Below are positions 30,861 to 59,790 of a DNA stretch of 64,000 nucleotides, piece by piece. This stretch comes from an uncultured Gammaproteobacteria bacterium (GTDB lineage: Bacteria; Patescibacteriota; Patescibacteriia; Magasanikbacterales; GWA2-37-8), in contig CAZEEW010000001.1 of assembly GCA_964511375.1 (NCBI GenBank), forward strand, positions 70,512 to 134,511. Direction: 5' to 3'. A program made the position numbers and the translations under genes. How positions within the stretch are numbered: position 1 is the stretch's first letter; every line of letters starts with the position of its first letter. The notes beneath the pieces are model-generated. The model did not search any database and was not told where the DNA came from. It was given only the letters and a program-made list of their open reading frames with translations.

Positions 30861-30930
30861 AAAAATCGCAAAATTTTTGCAATTTAATTATATCACATTA
30901 TAGAGTTATGATGAAGTAAGAAAAATATAT

Positions 30931-30942
30931 TTGTGGTATACT
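30931..30942 (+). promoter_or_regulatory. Extended -10 promoter element (TGTGGTATACT) upstream of GC-rich island A.
   Basis: It is nearly identical to the extended -10 element at 7296 (TGTGGTATAGT). It sits about 10 nt before the GC-rich segment. Confidence 0.4.
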
Positions 30943-30977
30943 CTAAGTGAGATGCTGGCTCGGAGAGGAGGTGAGCG

Positions 30978-31208
30978 ATGAGCCAGTTCAAGCGAGGTCT
31001 ACCACCCGACCTCAAAGCAATGGGTGGCCAGGTTTTCTGCCGGGAGCGGTTTGGTACAATCGTCGGTTACTCAACCGACGCCGCTCGAGGCAGACGGACT
31101 CTTCTTGTTCTCCAGGTCGTTCCTGGGTTCGGGGCGCAGGTGCTCCGGATTTCGGAGAATGACCACGATCTCTCGCGTGTGAGACTGGCGACGGCTTCGC
31201 CATGCTAG
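30978..31208 (+). CDS. GC-rich small hypothetical protein of 76 aa (island A).
   Basis: A strong SD (GGAGAGGAGG) lies 6 nt before the ATG. Third-position GC is elevated. It is preceded by a nine-codon upstream ORF (MLARRGGER) whose stop overlaps the start as ATGA. It could alternatively be a structured RNA. Confidence 0.35.
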   Translation: MSQFKRGLPPDLKAMGGQVFCRERFGTIVGYSTDAARGRRTLLVLQVVPGFGAQVLRISENDHDLSRVRLATASPC

Positions 31209-31313
31209 CCCCACGCGATAAGAAGGAGGCCTCGTGGCCTGCCTGATTCTCTTTGGCGCCGTTAAACACCTCGCGGCGCCCCTTCATTAAAAAAAATAAT
31301 TAGCCGCCCTGAT

Positions 31314-32539: not shown

Positions 32540-32822
32540 ATGCGCTAGAATAACAGCTTTTTAATTATTTGTCAAATACATATTTACAATCTCATGCCTG
32601 GACTATTGCTAGGTATCCAAAAGTCTGCTATTATAAACGATCATCTTCAAAAAAAGAAGATGTTCAAATAATATTTACAAGCTCCTTAAAATTCGCAAAA
32701 AAGGCAAATTCAATCTGGCGAACCAACATTTTCTTTTAATTTTAGAAAAAAATGCTGGCTCGCCAGAAGGTCGTTCCTCACGGTGGGGGATGACTGGAAG
32801 GTAAGTTGGAAAGGAAAAAGAG

Positions 32823-33986
32823 ATGGAGTCGGTCCGTCTCTTGTCCTGGAGCTTCGTTCACGTGCTCCAGATGATTCTCAACCTCGCCCGGCGCGGCGGG
32901 GTCGACTTCTCCAACCCCGGTCTCCTCCGTGAGGCCCTGAACATCCGGGCCTGGGAGGCCCTCGACGAGTTGGGGCGCGACCCCAAACACTTGTGGCGGC
33001 TTACGCCGCCCCTGCACCAGGTTTACTCTCGGGCCCTGGCTTACGGAGCTGGGGACAGGTGTAGCCATAATCAGGTCTACATGGCAGCCGAACAAGCCAC
33101 CAGTCTCGCCGAGGTAGCACTCGGTGAGGTGGGGTACAGTTGGCTGTCGCGGCGTCAGGTTGCTGCTCAGCTGATCTACGCACTGGCGAATGAGATCCAG
33201 GGCGATCCGCACGCCCTGGACGCAGCCGAGCGTCAGTCCCGCTCCGAGGCCTTCCTCCGGGAGTTCTACGGGTGCGGGTGGGACGACCCCGACCCCGAGC
33301 TCCAGAAGGAAGTTGAGTACTACGAGCGCCAGCTCGGGGTGCTCTACTGCCTCAGGGCGATCGCGGTGCTCACCGAGCATCCCGAGCTCGACCTCGTCGA
33401 GCTGACCCGCCAGGGCCTCATGAAGTACGGGGTCGTGGACACCCGGGGCCGCCGGGTGTGCTACTGGTGCTCCGGTGCCCCCTGCGTCTGCGGTGGGCGG
33501 AAGGGCGGGATGAAGGCCCGCCGGCCGGAGATCACCTCCGACCTCGTCTGGGCCCGGGGACTGCCGGAGATGGACCAGCACATGGTCGTCTACGGCGTGT
33601 CTCGGAACTCGGCCATCAACGCCCTCGCGGGTGTGGTTCGCTCCCTGTCGGAGGACGGTGGGGAGTACGGATGGATCAACCTCATGTCCCGCTGTGGCGG
33701 GACGAACCGGGGAATCCAAGAGAGGCTCGGCTGCCTCTACCTCGGCAGCAGCCGGCACCCCCGCATGGCGGCCAAGAAGTTCGACGCCGAGGGCGTGCCT
33801 CTCATCGAGGGGCTCTACTCGGAGGCGGCGGACGCCGTCGTCTCCTGGCCCTGCCTCGTGACACAGGCCTTCGGTCTGCAGTTCACAAGGTCGGTCTTAC
33901 TCGGTCTCCAGCACATGGCCGATGGCGCCGGGGTCACGCTCGAGACCCCAGACGATCTGACCCGGACCATCCCGGTCCGCGAGTAG
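32823..33986 (+). CDS. GC-rich hypothetical protein of 387 aa (island B, gene 1).
   Basis: It has a strong GC3 codon bias in this frame. The SD-like AGGAAAAAGAG precedes the ATG. It has a Cys cluster (CYWCSGAPCVCGG). I recognised no domain. The overlapping antisense ORFs are composition artifacts. Confidence 0.55.
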   Translation: MESVRLLSWSFVHVLQMILNLARRGGVDFSNPGLLREALNIRAWEALDELGRDPKHLWRLTPPLHQVYSRALAYGAGDRCSHNQVYMAAEQATSLAEVALGEVGYSWLSRRQVAAQLIYALANEIQGDPHALDAAERQSRSEAFLREFYGCGWDDPDPELQKEVEYYERQLGVLYCLRAIAVLTEHPELDLVELTRQGLMKYGVVDTRGRRVCYWCSGAPCVCGGRKGGMKARRPEITSDLVWARGLPEMDQHMVVYGVSRNSAINALAGVVRSLSEDGGEYGWINLMSRCGGTNRGIQERLGCLYLGSSRHPRMAAKKFDAEGVPLIEGLYSEAADAVVSWPCLVTQAFGLQFTRSVLLGLQHMADGAGVTLETPDDLTRTIPVRE

Positions 33987-34187
33987 TCGCCTCGCCGGCT
34001 GTCCTTCGGGGCGGTCGGTGGGCATGGTTTAGAGGTGGGGCGTTTCTCTTAGGGGAGACGCTTGCGCCTCCCCTATCCCAGTATTTCTTAATTCAAGGAA
34101 TGTTGAGATAGGAGGCTCGTAGACCGACGTGTTTTCGTTGGGCGCTCGGTTGAGCGCACGGCGAAACACCAAACAGAGGGAGGACAA

Positions 34188-34547
34188 ATGGTCCACAAGG
34201 ATCTCAGAATCGAGCTGGTGCTCGGCGGCGTCACTTTTATCATCGTTGGCTTCCTCGAGGCAGGCGAGGAAGTGATCACCGGTGATGAAATGAAGCGTCG
34301 GCTGGCGGCCCGCTCCTTGCGGCTCATCCACGGGGCGGATTTCGAGCACTTCTCTCGCTACCGCGAGGATTTGCCGAAAGAACTCCGACCTCACCTACTG
34401 GCCACAGACCAGTGTGCTCCAGAGTGCCAGAAAGAGACGACCGTCTTCGAGTTCTTCGAAGATGTGGAAGTGTGGCACTCGTTCTGGCACAACCTTTGCG
34501 GCCCGACATGGGGCCACAACGTCTTGGCGGTGTGCTGTTGTGTGTAG
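34188..34547 (+). CDS. GC-rich hypothetical protein of 119 aa (island B, gene 2).
   Basis: The SD is GAGGGAGG, 5 nt before the ATG. It has GC3 bias. It is followed by a 14-bp GC hairpin. Confidence 0.45.
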   Translation: MVHKDLRIELVLGGVTFIIVGFLEAGEEVITGDEMKRRLAARSLRLIHGADFEHFSRYREDLPKELRPHLLATDQCAPECQKETTVFEFFEDVEVWHSFWHNLCGPTWGHNVLAVCCCV

Positions 34548-34555
34548 GAGGGAGC

Positions 34556-34600
34556 GGTGCCGGCGGGGGACCCCCCGCCGGCACCCGTAGTCCCTTTTAA
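34556..34600 (+). terminator. Strong GC hairpin terminator closing island B.
   Basis: The stem is GGTGCCGGCGGGGG-a-CCCCCGCCGGCACC (14 bp), followed by a T-rich tract. Confidence 0.6.
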
Positions 34601-34691
34601 TTTAAATCACTAGCGTTGTTTTATTATAACTTACCTCTTGATGTACTAAATAATTATTTGTGATATACTTCATTTATTCTAATTCTTAATT

Positions 34692-47703: not shown

Positions 47704-50700
47704 ATGAAAAATATGTCACGCGATTCACTCCATTCAATTGACTTCGATGCCATTCGTCTTAGGCTGGCCTCTCCTGACATTATCCGCAATTGGTCATACG
47801 GTGAAGTAAACAAACCAGAAACCATTAACTACCGCACCCAGAAACCTGAGAAGGGTGGTTTGTTTGCCGAAGAAATTTTTGGTCCGACCAAAGACTGGGA
47901 ATGTTATTGTGGAAAGTATAAAAAGATTAGATATAAAGGTATTGTCTGCGACAAGTGTGGTGTAGAAGTTACTCACTCCTTAGTTCGCCGAGAACGCATG
48001 GGTCACATCGAACTGGCTGCTCCAGTCTCCCACATTTGGTTCTTACGTTCAGTCCCATCCAAAGTTGGTTTGGTTTTAGACCTTTCGGCTCAGGCTTTGG
48101 AAAAAGTTATTTACTTCGCTTCATTTGTAATAACTCAAGTCGATGAAGAAGGTAAGAAATTAGCTTCTGATCAATTACGTCAAGAATATAAGTCCAAACG
48201 CAAACAGATCGAACGTGAATTAGAACAAGCCATTCAAAAGTTGAATGATGAAAAAGCTGGGAAATCTGCTTTGGACAACGCCCAACAAGAAGCTGAGCGC
48301 AAATTAAAATCTCTAGAAAATGATTTCCAACAAGCTGACAAGGAACTAAAGGAAATCCAAGTGATGAAGATTGTTTCCGAAAATCGTTACCAGGAACTTT
48401 CTTTGCGCTATGGTCATTTATTTGAAGCTTCAATTGGTGCCGAAGCCGTCCGCAACTTACTCGAGCGCATTGATCTTGAAGAAACTATTAAACGTCTAAC
48501 TGAGGAACAACAAACTGCAAAAGGTGCAAAACGTGAAAGAATCATCCGCCGTAAGAAACTACTTAAGAGTTTGTTCATGACTGGTATCCGCCCAGAATGG
48601 ATGATCATGTTAAATATCCCGGTTATCCCACCAGACTTACGTCCAATGGTTGCTCTTGATGGTGGTCGTTTTGCAACCAGTGACTTAAATGATTTGTATC
48701 GTCGTGTTATTAACCGCAACAATCGTTTACGTCGTTTGAATGAATTGGATGCTCCGGAAGTTATCTGTCGCAACGAGAAAAGAATGCTGCAAGAAGCGGT
48801 TGATGCTTTGATCGACAATAGTGCTCGCCACTCAAAGACCGTCACTGCTTCCACTGGTCAAAAGAGACAATTGCGTTCTTTGGCCGACATCTTAAAAGGT
48901 AAACAAGGTCGTTTCCGCCAGAATCTTTTAGGTAAACGTGTTGATTATTCTGGTCGTTCGGTAATCGTCGTTGGCCCAACCCTAAATATTGATGAATGTG
49001 GTTTGCCAAAACGCATGGCTCTCGAATTATTCAAGCCATTCATTATTAGTGAGATTATTAAACGTGAATTAGCTCACAACGTTCGTAGTGCTAGCCGCTT
49101 TATTGAATCGGAGCGTGATGAGGTTTGGGATATTTTGGAAGAATTAACCAAAACCACTCGCGTGCTTTTGAACCGTGCGCCAACCCTACACCGCTTAGGT
49201 ATCCAGGCTTTCCACCCTCGTTTAATCGAAGGTAAAGCTATCCAATTACATCCCTTGGTTTGTACGGCTTTCAACGCTGACTTCGACGGTGACCAGATGG
49301 CTGTACATTTGCCTTTGACTTTAGAAGCCCGCGCTGAAGCCGATAATCTTATGGCTGCAGAAAAGAATCTTTTGAAGCCAGCGACTGGCCAACCAGTTAT
49401 TACTCCTAAGCAAGACATTGCACTTGGTTGTTTCTACCTGACTCACCACAAGACCGATGATACGGCTGAAGTTAAGAAGTTCTTCTATTCACCAAAGGAA
49501 GCCTTGCTTGCTTACAAGAGCCGCGTTGTTACTTTGCACGAACGCATTAAAGTTCGTATTTCTGAAGGTTTAGAACGACACGGCAAGAGCGAACCATTCT
49601 TGCTTGAGACTTCCATGGGTCGTCTTATCTTCAACGAAGTTGTTCCCGAAGGCTTACCATATTACAACGAAACAATTAACGTTAAAAAATTAGCCATGAT
49701 CATCCGGCTTTCTCTTGAAATGAATGGCCAAGAACGTACCGCTCATTTCTTGGATGATTTAAAGAACATGGGCTATAAGTATGTCACCAAGTCTGGTTAC
49801 TCACTTGGTATGAACAACTTCCCACGTATTGATGAAAAGCCAGCGATCTTAAAAGAAAGCGATGCTCGTGTACAAGAAGTAGAAGAACAATTCCAAGAAG
49901 GTTTGTTAACTCAAGCTGAACGTCGTGCCAAGATTTTAGAAATCTGGACTGAAGCTAAAGAAAAGATTTTGGCCAATAACCAAGCAACCTTGGATAAAAA
50001 CGGTCCAGTATTCGCCATGATTGATTCTGGTGCTCGTGGTACTTGGGGTCAGCTTGGTCAGGTTATTGGTATGAAAGGTTTGGTGGTGTCTCCTTCCGGC
50101 GATATTATCGAGCTTCCGGTTAAAGGTAACTTTAAAGAAGGTTTCGATGTACTTGAATTCTTCATCTCCTCCCACGGTACTCGTAAGGGTTTGTCCGATA
50201 CCGCTTTACGTACTGCTAACGCTGGTTACTTAACCCGTCGTTTAGTAGATGTTTCTCAAGATGTCGTAGTCTTAGAAGACGATTGTGGTGATGATATCGG
50301 TGAAACCTTTACTGAAGCTCAGTCTAAAGAAATGGGTGAGAAATTGGCTGACCGTGTCTGGGGTCGTTATGTCTTAGCGGATGTTAAGACAAACGATGGT
50401 AAGGTCATTGTTAAGGCCGGTGAAGCCATTGATGACAAAGCGGCTCGCGAAATTGAAAAGAGCGGTGTTACCTCAGTGCATGTTCGTAGCGTCTTACAAT
50501 GTCATTTGCCAAAAGGTGTTTGCCGCAAGTGTTATGGCTTTGATCTCGCCCACAACGCTCCAGCTAACATTGGTGTGGCCGTTGGTGTAATCGCTGCTCA
50601 GTCTATCGGTGAACCGGGTACTCAGCTTACACTTCGCACCTTCCACACTGGTGGTGTCATGGGTGGAGATATTACCCAAGGTTTGCCCCGCGTAGAAGAA

Positions 50701-51591
50701 CTATTTGAATGTCGTGCACCAAAGCACCAAGCTGTCTTGGCTGAAGTTGAAGGAACTGTCGAAATTGATGATGCTGACGGTAAGGTTATTACTTCCGCCT
50801 CTGGCAAGAAGATCTTTGAAGGCCGCCGTGGTCAAAAAATCATCCGCATTAAGTTTGAGGGTATGGAAGAAATGAAACTCAAATTTACTGAGGAAGACGA
50901 AGTGGAAGTAAAAGATGGTGATACAGTAAATAAAGATCAGGTTCTCATGGTTCGTGGTGGATCTGGTGAAGAAATTAAAGCTAAATACGGTGGTACTGTT
51001 AAAGTTAACAAGAACACTATTATTTTAACCTACGAAGGTCCAAAGGTTCGTGAATACATCGTCCCATTGGGTTACAAAGTCACTGTTCAAGACGGACAAA
51101 AGGTAGAAAAAGGTGACCGCCTAACTGATGGTAGTATTAACCTCCAAGACCTCTTTGATCTTAAGGGTCGCCCAGCGGTGCAAAGATACGTTTTGGAAGA
51201 AGTACAAAACATCTACTCTTCTCAAGGCCAGAAGGTTAATGATAAGCACGTAGAAATCATTATCCGCCAGATGTTTAGCCGTGTCTATGTTGAAGATGCT
51301 GGTGACACAGATTTATTACCAGGTGAAGTAGTAGAGAAAGCCCAGTTAGAGATTTCTAACCGTATGGCTAAGAAAGACGGCGGTAAGACTGCTACCTGCC
51401 GCGAACTCTTACTCGGTGTTTCTCGTGTTGCTCTTTCCACCCAGAGTTTCTTGTCTTCTGCTTCCTTCCAGGAAACAGCGAAAGTTCTTATTAACACCGC
51501 TATCACTGGTAAGATTGACTATCTTGAAGGTCTTAAAGAAAATGTTATTATCGGTCGTCTTATCCCAGCTGGTACTGGTTTCAAAGGTTAA
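47704..51591 (+). CDS. rpoC: DNA-directed RNA polymerase beta' subunit.
   Basis: It is 1295 aa. It carries NADFDGD and a zinc-binding Cys cluster. Confidence 0.97.
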   Translation: MKNMSRDSLHSIDFDAIRLRLASPDIIRNWSYGEVNKPETINYRTQKPEKGGLFAEEIFGPTKDWECYCGKYKKIRYKGIVCDKCGVEVTHSLVRRERMGHIELAAPVSHIWFLRSVPSKVGLVLDLSAQALEKVIYFASFVITQVDEEGKKLASDQLRQEYKSKRKQIERELEQAIQKLNDEKAGKSALDNAQQEAERKLKSLENDFQQADKELKEIQVMKIVSENRYQELSLRYGHLFEASIGAEAVRNLLERIDLEETIKRLTEEQQTAKGAKRERIIRRKKLLKSLFMTGIRPEWMIMLNIPVIPPDLRPMVALDGGRFATSDLNDLYRRVINRNNRLRRLNELDAPEVICRNEKRMLQEAVDALIDNSARHSKTVTASTGQKRQLRSLADILKGKQGRFRQNLLGKRVDYSGRSVIVVGPTLNIDECGLPKRMALELFKPFIISEIIKRELAHNVRSASRFIESERDEVWDILEELTKTTRVLLNRAPTLHRLGIQAFHPRLIEGKAIQLHPLVCTAFNADFDGDQMAVHLPLTLEARAEADNLMAAEKNLLKPATGQPVITPKQDIALGCFYLTHHKTDDTAEVKKFFYSPKEALLAYKSRVVTLHERIKVRISEGLERHGKSEPFLLETSMGRLIFNEVVPEGLPYYNETINVKKLAMIIRLSLEMNGQERTAHFLDDLKNMGYKYVTKSGYSLGMNNFPRIDEKPAILKESDARVQEVEEQFQEGLLTQAERRAKILEIWTEAKEKILANNQATLDKNGPVFAMIDSGARGTWGQLGQVIGMKGLVVSPSGDIIELPVKGNFKEGFDVLEFFISSHGTRKGLSDTALRTANAGYLTRRLVDVSQDVVVLEDDCGDDIGETFTEAQSKEMGEKLADRVWGRYVLADVKTNDGKVIVKAGEAIDDKAAREIEKSGVTSVHVRSVLQCHLPKGVCRKCYGFDLAHNAPANIGVAVGVIAAQSIGEPGTQLTLRTFHTGGVMGGDITQGLPRVEELFECRAPKHQAVLAEVEGTVEIDDADGKVITSASGKKIFEGRRGQKIIRIKFEGMEEMKLKFTEEDEVEVKDGDTVNKDQVLMVRGGSGEEIKAKYGGTVKVNKNTIILTYEGPKVREYIVPLGYKVTVQDGQKVEKGDRLTDGSINLQDLFDLKGRPAVQRYVLEEVQNIYSSQGQKVNDKHVEIIIRQMFSRVYVEDAGDTDLLPGEVVEKAQLEISNRMAKKDGGKTATCRELLLGVSRVALSTQSFLSSASFQETAKVLINTAITGKIDYLEGLKENVIIGRLIPAGTGFKG

Positions 51592-51602
51592 TAAAATATT
51601 TA

Positions 51603-51632
51603 AAGAGCCCCATAACTGGGGCTCTTGTTTTT
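51603..51632 (+). terminator. Terminator after rpoC.
   Basis: The hairpin is AGAGCCCC-ataact-GGGGCTCT, followed by TGTTTTT. Confidence 0.75.
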
Positions 51633-51815
51633 GGCTAAAATTTGAGATAGAATAACAATATAAAACAAAAATCCTACACTTTAAAGTATAGGATCTTATG
51701 TATTCCATTTAGCTTCTCTGTAGTCTTTAGCTAACAAGTGTTTGCTAGTTAAGGGCCGGGACAGAGAAGCTGTCCGCGGGTTAAAGAGTATGGGAACAGC
51801 TAGGTGGTTCGTCGA

Positions 51816-52037
51816 TCACCGCCTTCGCTGTAGAACAGCGAGGGTAGCGATTGAGAAGAACACACCTCCCACAACCGTCACGCGCTTAGGTTCGCGCGCA
51901 AGATCGTGGAACAAGCCGTCCCCGGTAAGGTCACCGCTCGCGCAGGCCAGGAGTCCGCAGATGATGCTTGCGAACACGGCTCCAGCCACGAGAGCGAGGA
52001 CTAGCCGAACGATCGCTTGATCACACTGCTGGGTCAT
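51816..52037 (-). CDS. GC-rich small membrane protein of 73 aa (island C).
   Basis: The SD is GGAGGGG, 6 nt before the ATG on the minus strand. It has one or two transmembrane helices (VRLVLALVAGAVFASIICGLLACA). The longer ORF to 52091 starts in the AT-rich flank without an SD. Confidence 0.4.
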   Translation of the reverse strand: MTQQCDQAIVRLVLALVAGAVFASIICGLLACASGDLTGDGLFHDLAREPKRVTVVGGVFFSIATLAVLQRRR

Positions 52038-52120
52038 TTGACCCCTCCATGCCCCCGCAGGGGCAAGTTGGAATAGACAAGATTTAATCACGAAAATGAG
52101 TTATAGTCAATCACATTTTT

Positions 52121-53986
52121 ATGTATAACCGCACCAAAATTATAGTCGTAACTTCCCTAATTTTAGCTATATTTGCAGGAATTCTAGGATATTTTTATGG
52201 GCCAAAAATATCCACAGATGGCAGCGTTTTTAACAGTACTGTTGAGGCTCAAAATGATAATCCCAACACCTCAACACCGGTCGTAGGTAAAAACCATAAT
52301 CCCTATGTAAACGATTCTCGTTTGTATGATGAATTTTTTGACTACGCCAAAAAGCCTAATGCCATTAGTGATAAAATTGTCTCTGGTGTTATCCCACATC
52401 ATCTTGTCGCTGGTCACTATGTAGCTGGATTTTTCGATTCTGTACAGAACACCGATCCTGAAGTAGTAGTATTGGTTGGGCCTAATCATGGGCAGCGTGG
52501 CAATGACAATTTTGTATCCAGCTACTTAAATTGGAACACACCATATGGTGAATTAAAGACAGATGCTAAATTGGTTGGTAAATTGGAAAAAGAAGGACTG
52601 GTTAAGATTAAGCCGGAAATAATGGAGGGAGAACATAGTATTAGTTCGCTCGTACCGTTTATCAGAAAAAACTGGAAAAACACTAAAATAGTGCCAGTCA
52701 TTGTTAAAAACAACGCCACAACTTCAGAATTAGATCGATTGGTGGAGTGGATTAAAAATGAAGTAGGAGATAAGGGATTGCTTTTAACTAGTGTAGACTT
52801 TTCACACTACCTGCAAAAAGATTCGGCAGATTTTCATGATGAGTTGTCCTTAGCAGTTTTAAGATCAGGCGACTTATCTCGGGTTCGTAAGTTGGAAGTA
52901 GATAGCCCTAATAGTTTGTACTTATTACTGAAGTACAATGAACAAATGGGTGCGAAAAAGTTTGAATTTTTTTCTCATACTAATAGTGCGGACATTTTAG
53001 AAAATCCGTCCTTGCTGGAAACCACTTCTCACGTCATTGCCGGATTTAATAGAGGTGAAGCGGCAGATAAGGCTATTACAATGCAATTTTTTGGCGACAT
53101 GATGCTAGAACGCAATGTTGCTAAGGTCATGGGCGTAAAAGGACTAGATTATCTTTTTGACAAATTAAAGGCCCAAGAAAACCGCTTCTTCTATGGCATG
53201 GACTTATTAGTTGCCAACCTCGAAGGTCCGTTTGCGCCAAGTAGAGTCCCCACCACTAAGTCCATCGCTTTTCGTTTTGATCCAAAACTCGCTTCGCAAT
53301 TGTCTAAGTATGGTTTCAGCGGATTCAATATCGCCAACAACCATACCGTGGATATGGGCTGGGCGAATGTGGATTACACCAAAAAGATTTTAAAACAAAA
53401 TAATTTAAAATATTTTGGTGATCAATTACGTGAAGGGAAAGAGTATTCTTGGATTGCGGGAGAAGAAATGGGCTTACCAGAAAAAGTTGCTTTTATCGGT
53501 GTTAATAACACCGACCACGCCTTGAAGATGGCAAAGGTTAGAGAAGCGATTGAGGAAGCAAAAAAGCAGGCTAGATACATAGTTGTTAACGTCCATTGGG
53601 GAGTAGAATACCAGCGAAACTCCAGAAAGGCTGAACAAGATTTAGCGCATTGGTTTGTGGACCAAGGAGTCGATGCGGTGATTGGTCATCATCCCCATGT
53701 GATTCAAGAAATGGAAGTGTATAAAGGTGCACCAATTTTTTATTCACTTGGCAATTTCATCTTTGACCAATATTTTTCAACGGAAACACAAGAAGGTATA
53801 AGCGTTGGATTAACTTTTAGCGACGGTAAGGTGAACGACGTGTATGTCTTCCCTTTCTACGGCACGAAATCCCAGGTTCAGTTAATGACCGGTAGTCGTA
53901 AAACAAAGTTTTTTGACTGGTGGAATAAAAATAGTCGGTTGGGAGGAGAGAAATTTGAAAATGGTAAAATAACTTTAAGTGAATAA
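52121..53986 (+). CDS. Fusion protein with an N-terminal AmmeMemoRadiSam-B/Memo-like domain and a C-terminal CapA (PGA_cap metallophosphatase) domain.
   Basis: The N-terminus has a transmembrane segment plus the Memo-like region (IPHHLVAGHYVAGFF...VVVLVGPNHG). The C-terminus carries the CapA motifs (NLEGPF, NIANNHTVDMG, HWGVEY, GHHPHV, SLGNFIFDQ). Confidence 0.6.
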   Translation: MYNRTKIIVVTSLILAIFAGILGYFYGPKISTDGSVFNSTVEAQNDNPNTSTPVVGKNHNPYVNDSRLYDEFFDYAKKPNAISDKIVSGVIPHHLVAGHYVAGFFDSVQNTDPEVVVLVGPNHGQRGNDNFVSSYLNWNTPYGELKTDAKLVGKLEKEGLVKIKPEIMEGEHSISSLVPFIRKNWKNTKIVPVIVKNNATTSELDRLVEWIKNEVGDKGLLLTSVDFSHYLQKDSADFHDELSLAVLRSGDLSRVRKLEVDSPNSLYLLLKYNEQMGAKKFEFFSHTNSADILENPSLLETTSHVIAGFNRGEAADKAITMQFFGDMMLERNVAKVMGVKGLDYLFDKLKAQENRFFYGMDLLVANLEGPFAPSRVPTTKSIAFRFDPKLASQLSKYGFSGFNIANNHTVDMGWANVDYTKKILKQNNLKYFGDQLREGKEYSWIAGEEMGLPEKVAFIGVNNTDHALKMAKVREAIEEAKKQARYIVVNVHWGVEYQRNSRKAEQDLAHWFVDQGVDAVIGHHPHVIQEMEVYKGAPIFYSLGNFIFDQYFSTETQEGISVGLTFSDGKVNDVYVFPFYGTKSQVQLMTGSRKTKFFDWWNKNSRLGGEKFENGKITLSE

Positions 53987-55291: not shown

Positions 55292-55398
55292 CACATTCAT
55301 ACATTGGACGTGATTTGTTTTTTAATAGCGAAAATTGCTGTTAAAAAACATGTCTCGTCCAGGGCGGACGGGAGTAAACCCGCAACGGGAGAGTTCAG

Positions 55399-55932
55399 AT
55401 GAAGAGCCTGGTGTCGTGTTTCGTGCTGGTCGCCCTGTTCCTCAACCTGTTCGGCTGCATCGAAGCGGCCGAGTTCAACCACTCCGACGCGACGACCGTG
55501 TCGGAGGACGTGGCTAGCGTCCAAGACGTCTCCTTGCCAGAGGAGAACGACATCGCCATCAAGATTCCCCGGGCGGAGTGCCCGGAGGCAACAGCCGGAC
55601 CATACACGGTCCGAGTTGTGATCGACGCCACGACCTGGGTCAGGATCTCGTCCGAGGTAGAGCGTGTCTTCCTCAGCCGGGAGCTCGATGCAGATCGGAT
55701 GGACACGGCCGAAATTCGCGTCGAGTCCGCCGGGTGCGATTTCCAGTTCGCCATCAGCAACAACTCCACGGAGGTCGCGCACGTCTCTGTGGAAGCCCCG
55801 ACAGGGGTTTCCATCACCATCCGGTACGCCCGTGGCGGATCCGAGACCGTTCCCGCGAACGGTTTCAAGCAGGCGATCGTCTACACGGTCGGTAATGTGA
55901 AGTACTACTTCCATTACCAGCCGCCGGGCTGA
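55399..55932 (+). CDS. GC-rich putative lipoprotein of 177 aa (island D).
   Basis: The SD is GGGAGAG, 6 nt before the ATG. It has a signal peptide with a lipobox (LFGC). It has GC3 bias. The antisense ORFs are composition artifacts. Confidence 0.55.
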   Translation: MKSLVSCFVLVALFLNLFGCIEAAEFNHSDATTVSEDVASVQDVSLPEENDIAIKIPRAECPEATAGPYTVRVVIDATTWVRISSEVERVFLSRELDADRMDTAEIRVESAGCDFQFAISNNSTEVAHVSVEAPTGVSITIRYARGGSETVPANGFKQAIVYTVGNVKYYFHYQPPG

Positions 55933-56056
55933 GCACCAAGGGCGGCAAGTCGCCGCCCGCGAGGCTGCCGCATCGTACTGGCCCTCGTATTCATTATTAA
56001 TCCTTTGGGGTTGGTAATGAGTACTTACTTCCAGTACGCTTGCGAATAAAAATAAA

Positions 56057-59222: not shown

Positions 59223-59546
59223 CTAGTTAGATTTACCACTAGGATTTTTGTAGCTCTCCACGTCCTTCAGGTTGTGTCCGTGTTTGCCTAAAATAATTTC
59301 CACCATTTCAATGAAACTACCGAGAGTAAAACCAGCCATGGCAATCGAAAATACCTTGTTACCCACCCAGAGGGCGTATATAAATAAACAGGCGCCCGCC
59401 ACAACAAATACAGCGTCTTGGCGACGCTCTGTTTCCAAAAACACCCCATAAGTTAATAAAATAGCCCCAAGACCAGCAACTACGTTCATAAGGATTGTAG
59501 TTAGCGGCCAAGGTAGGGTAGAGAAAATCTCTGGTAGTGGCGGCAT
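59223..59546 (-). CDS. Small integral membrane protein (tandem paralog 1).
   Basis: It has three predicted transmembrane helices and is similar to the downstream 77-aa ORF. Confidence 0.4.
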   Translation of the reverse strand: MPPLPEIFSTLPWPLTTILMNVVAGLGAILLTYGVFLETERRQDAVFVVAGACLFIYALWVGNKVFSIAMAGFTLGSFIEMVEIILGKHGHNLKDVESYKNPSGKSN

Positions 59547-59556
59547 ATGTTTTAAG

Positions 59557-59790
59557 TTAAGAAGTAACTTTTTTATTTCGTAATTTAAATATTTCGTAGA
59601 GACTAGCGAGAGTAAAAATTATTTGCAAAGGTATGAAGATTGGATCGCGCAAGTACGAGCTGTATGCTAAGAGAAATATCCCGCCTAAAGCAAAAACAAT
59701 ATCTTGTCGTATCTCTTTTTTAACAAAAATACCGTAAGTAATGAGCAAAACTCCAATTACTCCAGAAGTTTTCGCTAAGATTTCTAGCAT
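59557..59790 (-). CDS. Small integral membrane protein (tandem paralog 2).
   Basis: It has two transmembrane helices and shares the pattern (G)VIGVLLITYGIF...RQDIVF with its neighbour. Confidence 0.4.
   Translation of the reverse strand: MLEILAKTSGVIGVLLITYGIFVKKEIRQDIVFALGGIFLLAYSSYLRDPIFIPLQIIFTLASLYEIFKLRNKKVTS

Follow-up and report, generated by a model that had tools for sequence, protein, structure and literature searches.

A putative accessory small membrane-protein gene in a conserved RNA scaffold between rpoC and Memo-CapA of a Patescibacteria genome

The GC-rich block and its surroundings

The DNA considered here is a 64-kb stretch of a Patescibacteria contig (CAZEEW010000001.1), hereafter called the window; all coordinates follow the numbering of this whole stretch. 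Its GC-rich island C, found at 51740-52087 (57.8 % GC vs 41.7 % across the window; 100-nt windows of at least 55 % GC), had been placed by a preliminary description between the rpoC terminator and the Memo-CapA gene, and it was indeed flanked by rpoC (47704-51591) on one side and by a Memo-CapA fusion gene (52121-53986, plus strand) on the other. Judging from sequence comparisons, island C would form the coding part of a dispensable mini-gene that occupies some 450 bp of the minus strand (window ~51668-52110), here called the cassette. Related contigs and genomes used for comparison are labelled L001 to L042, L003 being CAZRZQ010000038.1. The cassette and its immediate surroundings display the following features, given with the basis of each assignment; UTR stands for untranslated region and ORF for open reading frame.

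51603..51632, plus strand: rpoC intrinsic terminator, hairpin 51603-51626 and T run (terminator scan; L003 has an equivalent hairpin of different sequence)
51625..51653, plus strand: retained ancestral Memo-CapA promoter TTGTTT-N17-TAGAAT, directed through the cassette (seven-genome promoter comparison, by eye)
51668..51697, minus strand: intrinsic terminator of the small gene, 13 pairs and T run (terminator scan; equivalent in L003)
51693..51707, minus strand: 3' arm of a predicted clamp, UGGAAUACAUAAGAU (inverted repeat, 14 of 15 RNA pairs)
51711..51771, minus strand: long 3' UTR hairpin, 11-bp stem AGCUUCUCUGU/ACAGAGAAGCU around an inner hairpin (inverted repeats; RNAalifold)
51784..51796, minus strand: CU-rich motif UUCCCAUACUCUU downstream of the stop codon (base-paired to GGAG of the Shine-Dalgarno sequence in the minimum-energy fold)
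51816..52037, minus strand: ORF of 73 codons and TGA, two-helix membrane protein (frame, codon GC, shuffles, AlphaFold2 model)
52042..52048, minus strand: Shine-Dalgarno sequence GGAGGGG, 4 nt before the ATG, or 6 nt when counted from the GGAGG core (predicted to be mostly paired)
52051..52064, minus strand: 5' UTR hairpin GCCCCUGCGGGGGC (GC) (sequence and predicted fold)
52068..52097, plus strand: possible gene-proximal promoter of Memo-CapA, TTGGAA-18-GAAAAT, arranged back to back with that of the small gene (weak, 8 of 12 positions, by eye)
52069..52083, minus strand: 5' arm of the predicted clamp, AUCUUGUCUAUUCCA, overlapping the plus-strand -35-like hexamer TTGGAA (inverted repeat and fold)
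52082..52110, minus strand: small-gene promoter of the extended -10 type, with -35 TTGACT (52110-52105), a 17-nt spacer, TG (52090-52089) and -10 TTAAAT (52087-52082) (by eye)
52121..53986, plus strand: Memo-CapA fusion gene, the cassette lying within its leader (Pfam Memo and PGA_cap)

An independent Logan assembly of run SRR5011273 was identical to the window over 5368 nt, block included, so that the block is not an artefact of a single assembly. No gene was called within it in the Logan record of the locus. The block had been described as lying directly after the rpoC terminator; it is downstream of that terminator (51603-51632), but about 110 nt of AT-rich sequence, conserved in L003, separate the two. 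Its presumed embedding in DNA of foreign composition was likewise correct only in part. Foreign-like composition was confined to the ribosome-binding site and the ORF, whereas promoter, 3' UTR and terminator were AT-rich and conserved in L003.

The small ORF and its product

The open minus-strand frame spans 51816..52091 and encodes 91 aa from a GTG, or 73 aa from an ATG at 52035-52037, with a TGA stop at 51816-51818. The shorter version, which starts at 52037 and is the one already proposed in the preliminary description, reads MTQQCDQAIVRLVLALVAGAVFASIICGLLACASGDLTGDGLFHDLAREPKRVTVVGGVFFSIATLAVLQRRR; the Shine-Dalgarno sequence reported for it was also found in place. Two hydrophobic segments were recognised in this product, VRLVLALVAGAVFASIICGLLACA and VTVVGGVFFSIATLAVL, at residues ~10-33 and ~53-69. 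The first had been noticed before, together with the arginine-rich tail, which reads QRRR, but the second had been missed and the peptide is not a single-helix protein. The loop is acidic and the N-terminus near-neutral. A single-sequence AlphaFold2 model displayed helices at residues 3-37, 42-48 and 50-72, with a mean predicted local distance difference test score of 69.6. According to the positive-inside rule, these features suggest a two-pass helical hairpin with both ends in the cytoplasm and the acidic loop outside.

The length of the ORF is by itself within chance expectation and is weak evidence for coding: an equally long or longer ORF was encountered in 19 % (ATG start) to 26 % (any start) of island shuffles, and ORFs of about 90 codons are present on both strands of the block. 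Helix content behaved differently from length. An ATG-initiated ORF of at least 55 aa with at least two transmembrane-like segments on the same strand was obtained in none of 3000 dinucleotide shuffles of the window region, and the matching frequencies were 0.002 and 0.001 for the corresponding regions of L003 and L040, which harbor ORFs of the same kind (see below). Since two-helix ORFs occur in three lineages and each is rare in shuffles, their recurrence is not due to chance. GC contents at the three codon positions of the minus frame were 0.69/0.47/0.65, and the lowest value at the second position fits a coding frame. The 92-aa ORF of the plus strand, earlier regarded as an artefact of composition, displayed values of 0.51/0.65/0.62, as expected for the shifted antisense frame of a minus-strand gene; it is a by-product of the minus-strand coding frame, which is the one that survives the shuffle test. 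We consider it highly probable that the cassette is expressed and codes for a small membrane protein.

A structured non-coding RNA, or a structured plus-strand leader of Memo-CapA with a merely fortuitous ORF in GC-rich DNA, appears highly improbable by comparison. GC-rich intergenic blocks of AT-rich genomes are often RNAs, the ORF is of non-significant length, no gene was called in the Logan record, and the block displayed fold z-scores of -4.9 (plus strand) and -5.6 (minus strand). The same z-scores were rejected as a sign of non-coding RNA, because coding islands B and D of the window (see below) reached -3 to -5 and the L003 counterpart only -1.1. The block is moreover not conserved in L003, where its 51 % identity corresponds to the shuffle level. 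Rfam 15 reported only three tRNAs at the gathering score over the whole window, and at E <= 10 no credible match was found on 51550-52200 and none inside the block; ARAGORN detected no tmRNA. The codon-position pattern also speaks against this explanation, and so do the two-helix ORFs found on one and the same strand in three lineages, far more often than chance would allow.

The protein itself is an orphan. A word-seeded search of 5.8 billion proteins returned no homologue, and an exhaustive HMMER search of 1.84 billion representatives returned two matches, to proteins of 2070 and 1323 aa, both spurious and repeat-driven. The 99-aa ORF of L003 matched only itself. The only Pfam match of the 73-aa protein was DUF6394 (E = 0.069, below the cut-off of that family), and no match was found in NCBIfam, PHROGs or PADLOC. 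The resemblance to small toxins or holins put forward in the preliminary description was therefore not reflected in any match to toxin, holin, phage or defence families of these four collections. Class II holins and pinholins display two membrane helices and a charged C-terminus. The cassette protein has two helices, the first of which abounds in Ala, Gly and Ser, and ends in a short basic tail, as would a remnant of such a phage-type class II holin or pinholin. This origin is scarcely credible in view of the missing PHROGs match, of the absence of an adjoining endolysin or phage gene (the neighbours being rpoC and Memo-CapA), and of the syntenic position of the unit among housekeeping genes in three lineages.

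Promoter, untranslated regions and terminator

Expression signals proper to the small gene were found at both ends of the unit: a conserved promoter, the ribosome-binding site already noted in the preliminary description, and a terminator detected by scan. The promoter was not listed by the scanning tool in the window, as its rule demands an A at position 2 of the -10 box, which TTAAAT does not display; it is conserved in L003, where the scan reported TTGACT-18-TACATT. The terminator stem was maintained with respect to L003 by two compensatory and several one-sided changes. The minus-strand RNA delimited by these signals is predicted to be about 410 nt long, with a structured 3' UTR of about 120 nt; the 3' module had a fold z-score of -4.9.

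The ribosome-binding site was largely paired in the predicted ensembles of the window and L003 transcripts, with predicted unpaired probabilities in the window of 0.0 for GGGGU and 0.18-0.38 for GGAG. The CU-rich motif is a possible pairing partner of this site, which is suggestive only. CU-rich counterparts able to pair with their own ribosome-binding sites follow the stop codon at a short distance in both L003 and L040.

Distribution among relatives

A protein search assigned the organism to the Magasanikbacteria-like Patescibacteria. Relatives were gathered by scanning genomes with Memo-CapA, which yielded two close ones, L002 and L003. These are sisters (91 % identical in Memo-CapA and 95 % in YebC), to which the window forms an outgroup (75-77 % and 85 %, respectively). 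Variation within species, sought for an estimate of non-synonymous over synonymous rates (dN/dS), was absent: L001 was identical to the window, and the intergenic region and neighbouring genes of L003 were identical in L028 and L029. The L003 record is entitled 'uncultured Gammaproteobacteria bacterium', yet its genes are 90-95 % identical to those of L002, a metagenome-assembled genome of Patescibacteria; it is probably mislabelled or derived from a contaminated bin.

L003 harbors a corresponding unit at the homologous site, with the promoter TTGACT...TGATTACAT. The promoter, the initial 5' UTR nucleotides, a 3' module (~116 nt) and the terminator are conserved between window and L003, while ribosome-binding site and ORF are unrelated. 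The L003 ORF, called by the Joint Genome Institute, is likewise GC-rich (codon-position GC contents of 0.51/0.39/0.76) and encodes 99 aa starting with MHNLP. Its product also combines two hydrophobic helices with an acidic loop and a basic tail. In L002, the whole unit, terminator hairpin and -35 box included, is missing in the form of a clean indel, and the site is rearranged. L040, with a Memo-CapA only 57 % identical, carries a third, unrelated GC-rich ORF of 67 aa with two helices, on the same strand and in the same gap. It follows a perfect TTGACA-17-TG-TATAAT promoter and is succeeded by a terminator hairpin read by eye.

The block is not a conserved element of the rpoC 3' UTR, which would have spoken against the preliminary description. 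In five relatives, rpoC is followed almost directly by Memo-CapA (L034, L035/L036 and L042) or by a CapA-only homologue (L037), and L002 has no cassette. Other inserts occupy the gap elsewhere, GC-rich in L030 and L033 and not GC-rich in L041 (48 % GC vs 46 % for the locus).

The gap appears as an insertion hot spot. L030 (2071-3000) carries a GC-rich ORF of 236 aa; L033 (214-3000) contains an insert of 2.8 kb, in which a 230-aa membrane protein with multiple helices is encoded besides further GC-rich ORFs; L041 (1-2422) harbors orphans of 575 and 180 aa, not GC-rich. Two plus-strand ORFs of L033 (1311-1865 and 2185-2340) have the motif RHVAYL(F/Y)F(D/N)G(V/D)RWVL(Y/N)F(S/N)WE..DW.S.DRFACS in common, which suggests a duplicated domain. 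In L040, positions 500-727 include about 190 nt of moderate GC content with several hairpins, located between the rpoC terminator and a hairpin at 693-727. The latter is bordered by A and T runs on both sides and could terminate both strands; a scaffold gap follows it. This segment, for which Rfam gave no match at E <= 0.5, could represent a small RNA convergent with the 67-aa ORF.

Conservation of the RNA scaffold and of the protein

Four-fold degenerate sites of Memo-CapA were only 30 % identical between window and L003, which corresponds to saturation. The 3' module was nonetheless 77-78 % identical (blastn, 114 nt, E = 2e-17). RNAalifold predicted 41 pairs in this module, all of which were kept, with three compensatory changes, seven one-sided changes and no broken pair. 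They form the long hairpin, with an invariant outer stem and an inner stem with one compensatory and several one-sided changes, and the terminator. The conservation of the 3' module in spite of saturated four-fold sites indicates selection on an RNA scaffold composed of promoter, clamp arms, 3' hairpin and terminator.

The coding core behaved otherwise. A gapped alignment of the ribosome-binding site and ORF region yielded the 51 % identity typical of shuffled controls, BLASTP and tblastn gave no alignment at all between the window and L003 proteins, and no similarity was found among the three small proteins or among the DNA regions of their ORFs. At the sequence level, selection on the protein would extend at most to a short two-helix hydrophobic product, as its amino-acid sequence is not conserved. 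With neutral sites saturated, divergence alone can account for the unrelated ORFs; replacement of the cassette is possible and not required.

A predicted clamp between the transcript ends

The start of the predicted transcript (52069-52083) and a segment just ahead of the terminator (51693-51707) are linked by a 15-nt inverted repeat. L003 displays the inverted repeat at homologous positions, with three substitutions in the arms, all at facing positions; by inspection, two of the three restore pairing (C-G to U-A and A-U to G-C). The clamp is part of the minimum-energy fold of both full transcripts, window and L003, with pair probabilities of at least 0.9 at most arm positions.

The same 15-nt repeats (51693-51707 and 52069-52083) could be considered the termini of an element resembling miniature inverted-repeat transposable elements, or of an exchangeable cassette, with the ORFs as exchanged cargo. 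Their homologous positions and matched changes in window and L003, the clean presence/absence indel of L002, the use of the gap by differing GC-rich inserts (that of L041 excepted), and the contrast between foreign ORF cores and native flanks are all compatible with mobility. Still, we regard it as very unlikely. Neither the repeat nor the 3' module had a second copy in the 64-kb window, and no target site duplication was seen. A 20-nt motif of the 3' module did not turn up in any related setting among viral or metagenome contigs: a pattern scan of the viral contigs returned no copies, and 19 metagenome matches were all rejected as chance occurrences inside unrelated genes or contexts. Core sites of the integron attC type (RYYYAAC / GTTRRRY) were not recognised by eye in the 3' hairpin. 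Promoter and terminator lie outside the repeats and are oriented to express what is inside, a better fit to a single transcription unit, and saturation of synonymous sites means that divergence suffices to erase similarity between the ORFs.

A predicted antisense setting in the Memo-CapA leader

A promoter of the form TTG(T/A)TT-N17-TA(G/A)(A/G)AT ends 9 nt before the Memo-CapA ATG in L030, L033, L034 and L035, and 26 nt before it in L002. Its segment TTGAGATAGAAT was identical in the window, L002 and L003. Window and L003 have retained this ancestral promoter directly past the rpoC terminator, where the cassette brings its distance to the ATG to ~470 and ~530 nt, respectively. As the unit lies between the ancestral promoter and the start codon, transcription from this promoter would run antisense across the whole small-gene mRNA. 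Its activity is suggested by perfect conservation, and the resulting RNA would be complementary to the entire small-gene mRNA and would begin within ~10 nt of the 3' end of the latter. Terminator scans of window and L003 found no plus-strand terminator inside the cassette. The preliminary description had seen neither antitoxin nor small RNA; a discrete antisense RNA is indeed not visible, but the retained Memo-CapA promoter is a candidate antisense source that it did not consider.

The possible proximal Memo-CapA promoter of the window has a better counterpart in L003, TTGGAA-16-TATAAT, with agreement at 10 of 12 positions. In L030, L033, L034, L035 and L040, only 6-9 nt separate the end of the Memo-CapA -10 box from the ATG; such proximity implies a leaderless or near-leaderless mRNA without Shine-Dalgarno sequence in these relatives.

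Interpretation and relation to known systems

The reading that we prefer, with a probability of roughly 0.5, is that of an accessory gene for a small membrane protein that is controlled at the RNA level and resembles type I toxin-antitoxin systems. Its parts are not equally firm. RNA-level control, through the conserved UTR structures or through the antisense transcript, is somewhat favoured; toxicity or growth arrest upon synthesis of the protein, that is, a type I-like function, can be put forward only tentatively. The most likely mechanism, we infer, would involve a membrane-active small protein whose synthesis is restrained after transcription. Translation would be kept low by the 5'-3' clamp and by the pairing of the ribosome-binding site, and a duplex with the convergent antisense transcript would act as a second brake.

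Several observations weigh against this reading. The clamp duplex was only modestly better than in shuffles (p ~0.016 in the window and 0.22 in L003), and it was not seen in L040, where the scaffold gap interrupts the equivalent region. The outer third of its 5' arm may lie upstream of the transcription start, since a start 7-8 nt past the -10 box would leave only the inner 6-10 nt of this arm in the RNA; the plus-strand -35-like hexamer overlapping the arm could also account for its conservation. A discrete antisense RNA with its own terminator was not visible, the antisense transcript being deduced from the promoter motif alone, and in L040 the Memo-CapA promoter is located on the gene-proximal side of the cassette, so that the antisense-in-leader layout is not general. 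The conserved scaffold is known from two sequences only, hence the small covariation counts, and the fold z-score of the block is not specific (-3 to -5 also in coding islands B and D, -1.1 in the L003 ORF region). The products, of 73 aa (window), 99 aa (L003) and 67 aa (L040) with two helices each, exceed the size of type I toxins.

Among type I loci, txpA/RatA, bsrG/SR4 and fst/RNAII use 3'-overlapping or convergent antisense RNAs, and hok/Sok and aapA1/IsoA1 are subject to 5'-3' fold-back control. A convergent layout is seen in several type I loci. According to the T1TAdb paper (PMC8594479), type I mRNAs measure 150-400 nt and encode toxins of 20-60 aa, antisense RNAs measure 60-200 nt, and typical traits include a sequestered ribosome-binding site, stem-loops at the ends and long-distance pairing between 5' and 3' parts. 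The cassette is similar to the five loci named above in its small hydrophobic membrane protein encoded in an intergenic gap, its predicted mRNA of ~400 nt with own promoter and terminator, its convergent promoter that would yield a complementary RNA, its patchy distribution and its rapid sequence turnover. Stem-loops predicted at both ends, 5'-3' pairing and a paired ribosome-binding site are likewise typical traits (PMC8594479). It differs in the size of the product (67-99 aa and two helices instead of 20-60 aa and one), and in lacking any sequence or covariance-model match to toxin or antitoxin families, those of Rfam antitoxins included. A discrete antitoxin of 60-200 nt with a terminator is also missing, the candidate antisense RNA being the mRNA leader of the neighbouring gene. 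The host phylum differs as well: the abstract of a 2025 paper (PMC12390103) lists type I systems only for Proteobacteria, Firmicutes and Tenericutes and proposes them for Cyanobacteria, Patescibacteria not being among the phyla listed there. The predicted unit would thus be similar to a type I system in its mRNA architecture and not classifiable as one, because of the exceeded size and because no discrete antitoxin is visible.

The cassette gene can also be compared with those of small membrane modulators such as AcrZ, MgrB, KdpF, or CapE/PgsE with CapA/PgsA, as its product is small and membrane-inserted and the gene adjoins that of a CapA-domain membrane-anchored enzyme. These modulators usually have a single helix and less than 60 aa and are conserved with their partner, whereas the cassette protein is unconserved and often absent. 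Many small membrane proteins modulate larger ones, and CapA/PgsA of poly-gamma-glutamate systems works with the small membrane peptide CapE/PgsE. An ordinary, non-toxic accessory protein could accordingly be envisaged, either a modulator or partner of Memo-CapA or a factor of surface or host interaction, with UTRs serving stability and termination only and an incidental antisense layout. Such a protein would agree with these precedents, with a coding gene divergent from and adjoining Memo-CapA in three lineages, and with the position of the L040 cassette outside the Memo-CapA leader. We nevertheless consider it unlikely. A partner would be expected to keep some sequence, yet the three ORFs share none while the Memo-CapA proteins are 57-75 % identical; many relatives with Memo-CapA are devoid of such an ORF; no Pfam or NCBIfam match was found; and conservation of the RNA scaffold goes beyond the needs of a simple terminator.

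In an excludon, the long leader of one gene is antisense to a divergent neighbour. The locus is comparable in that the retained upstream promoter would provide Memo-CapA with a long leader fully complementary to the opposite small gene. It differs in that a proximal Memo-CapA promoter probably also exists and that L040 does not display this arrangement.

Other GC-rich islands of the window

Island D (55335-56041) contains an ORF (55399-55932, plus strand) for a lipoprotein-like orphan of 177 aa, with a signal ending in ...LFGC and codon-position GC contents of 0.58/0.44/0.82. Its orthologues in L002 (9262-9813) and L003 (5048-5599) are 37-40 % identical, against 75-85 % for neighbouring genes. 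In more distant relatives, RuvC is directly followed by the SpoU methylase, without the island D gene. The 58-61 % GC of island D in spite of saturated synonymous sites implies that GC-richness is maintained and does not result from fresh transfer.

Island B (32752-34629, 63 % GC) is flanked by genes of native composition and contains a 387-aa orphan ORF (32823-33986, plus strand; codon-position GC 0.68/0.46/0.86; no Pfam family) and a second one of 119 aa (34188-34547, plus strand). Island A (30930-31310, 381 bp, 57 % GC), between two minus-strand genes, contained no ORF whose codon positions were coding-like and had no Rfam match at E <= 10; its fold z-score of ~-3.7 for either strand may point to a structured RNA of undescribed type. 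At 59223-59790 of the minus strand, two neighbouring ORFs of 107 and 77 aa encode small multi-helix membrane proteins; they are of native AT-rich composition and apparently ordinary, in contrast to island C. No repeat links between the GC-rich islands were found, nor any template/variable repeat pair in the style of diversity-generating retroelements.

These islands bear on a further conception of the cassette, which we rate as quite unlikely: a fixed expression scaffold (promoter, clamp, 3' hairpin and terminator) around a coding core that undergoes repeated replacement or hyper-diversification, its GC-richness being actively maintained. GC-richness would then arise through cassette exchange from a GC-rich pool or through biased gene conversion at a recombination hot spot. 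If true, the locus would be an undescribed diversification slot for small membrane proteins in episymbiotic bacteria of the candidate phyla radiation (CPR), perhaps involved in host interaction or immunity, and the other GC-rich islands of the window would be products of the same process.

Implications

The ORF was not called by gene callers in the window's own genome, and such genes are therefore probably under-counted in CPR genomes. The persistence of GC-richness in fast-evolving accessory ORFs is part of a wider puzzle, in which fast-evolving accessory genes are GC-rich (third-position GC of 0.65-0.86) as opposed to core genes (~0.37). To our knowledge, small proteins and post-transcriptional control have hardly been described in Patescibacteria. 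The present locus comprises an orphan accessory gene, very probably for a small membrane protein, that would be lodged inside a conserved RNA scaffold and antisense within the Memo-CapA leader. Patescibacteria, which the abstract of PMC12390103 does not list for type I systems, would harbor in it a candidate toxin-like module of small membrane protein and RNA control. The untranslated RNA scaffold was conserved through saturating divergence and the protein was not, which points to RNA architecture and a generic two-helix hydrophobic product as the selected features.

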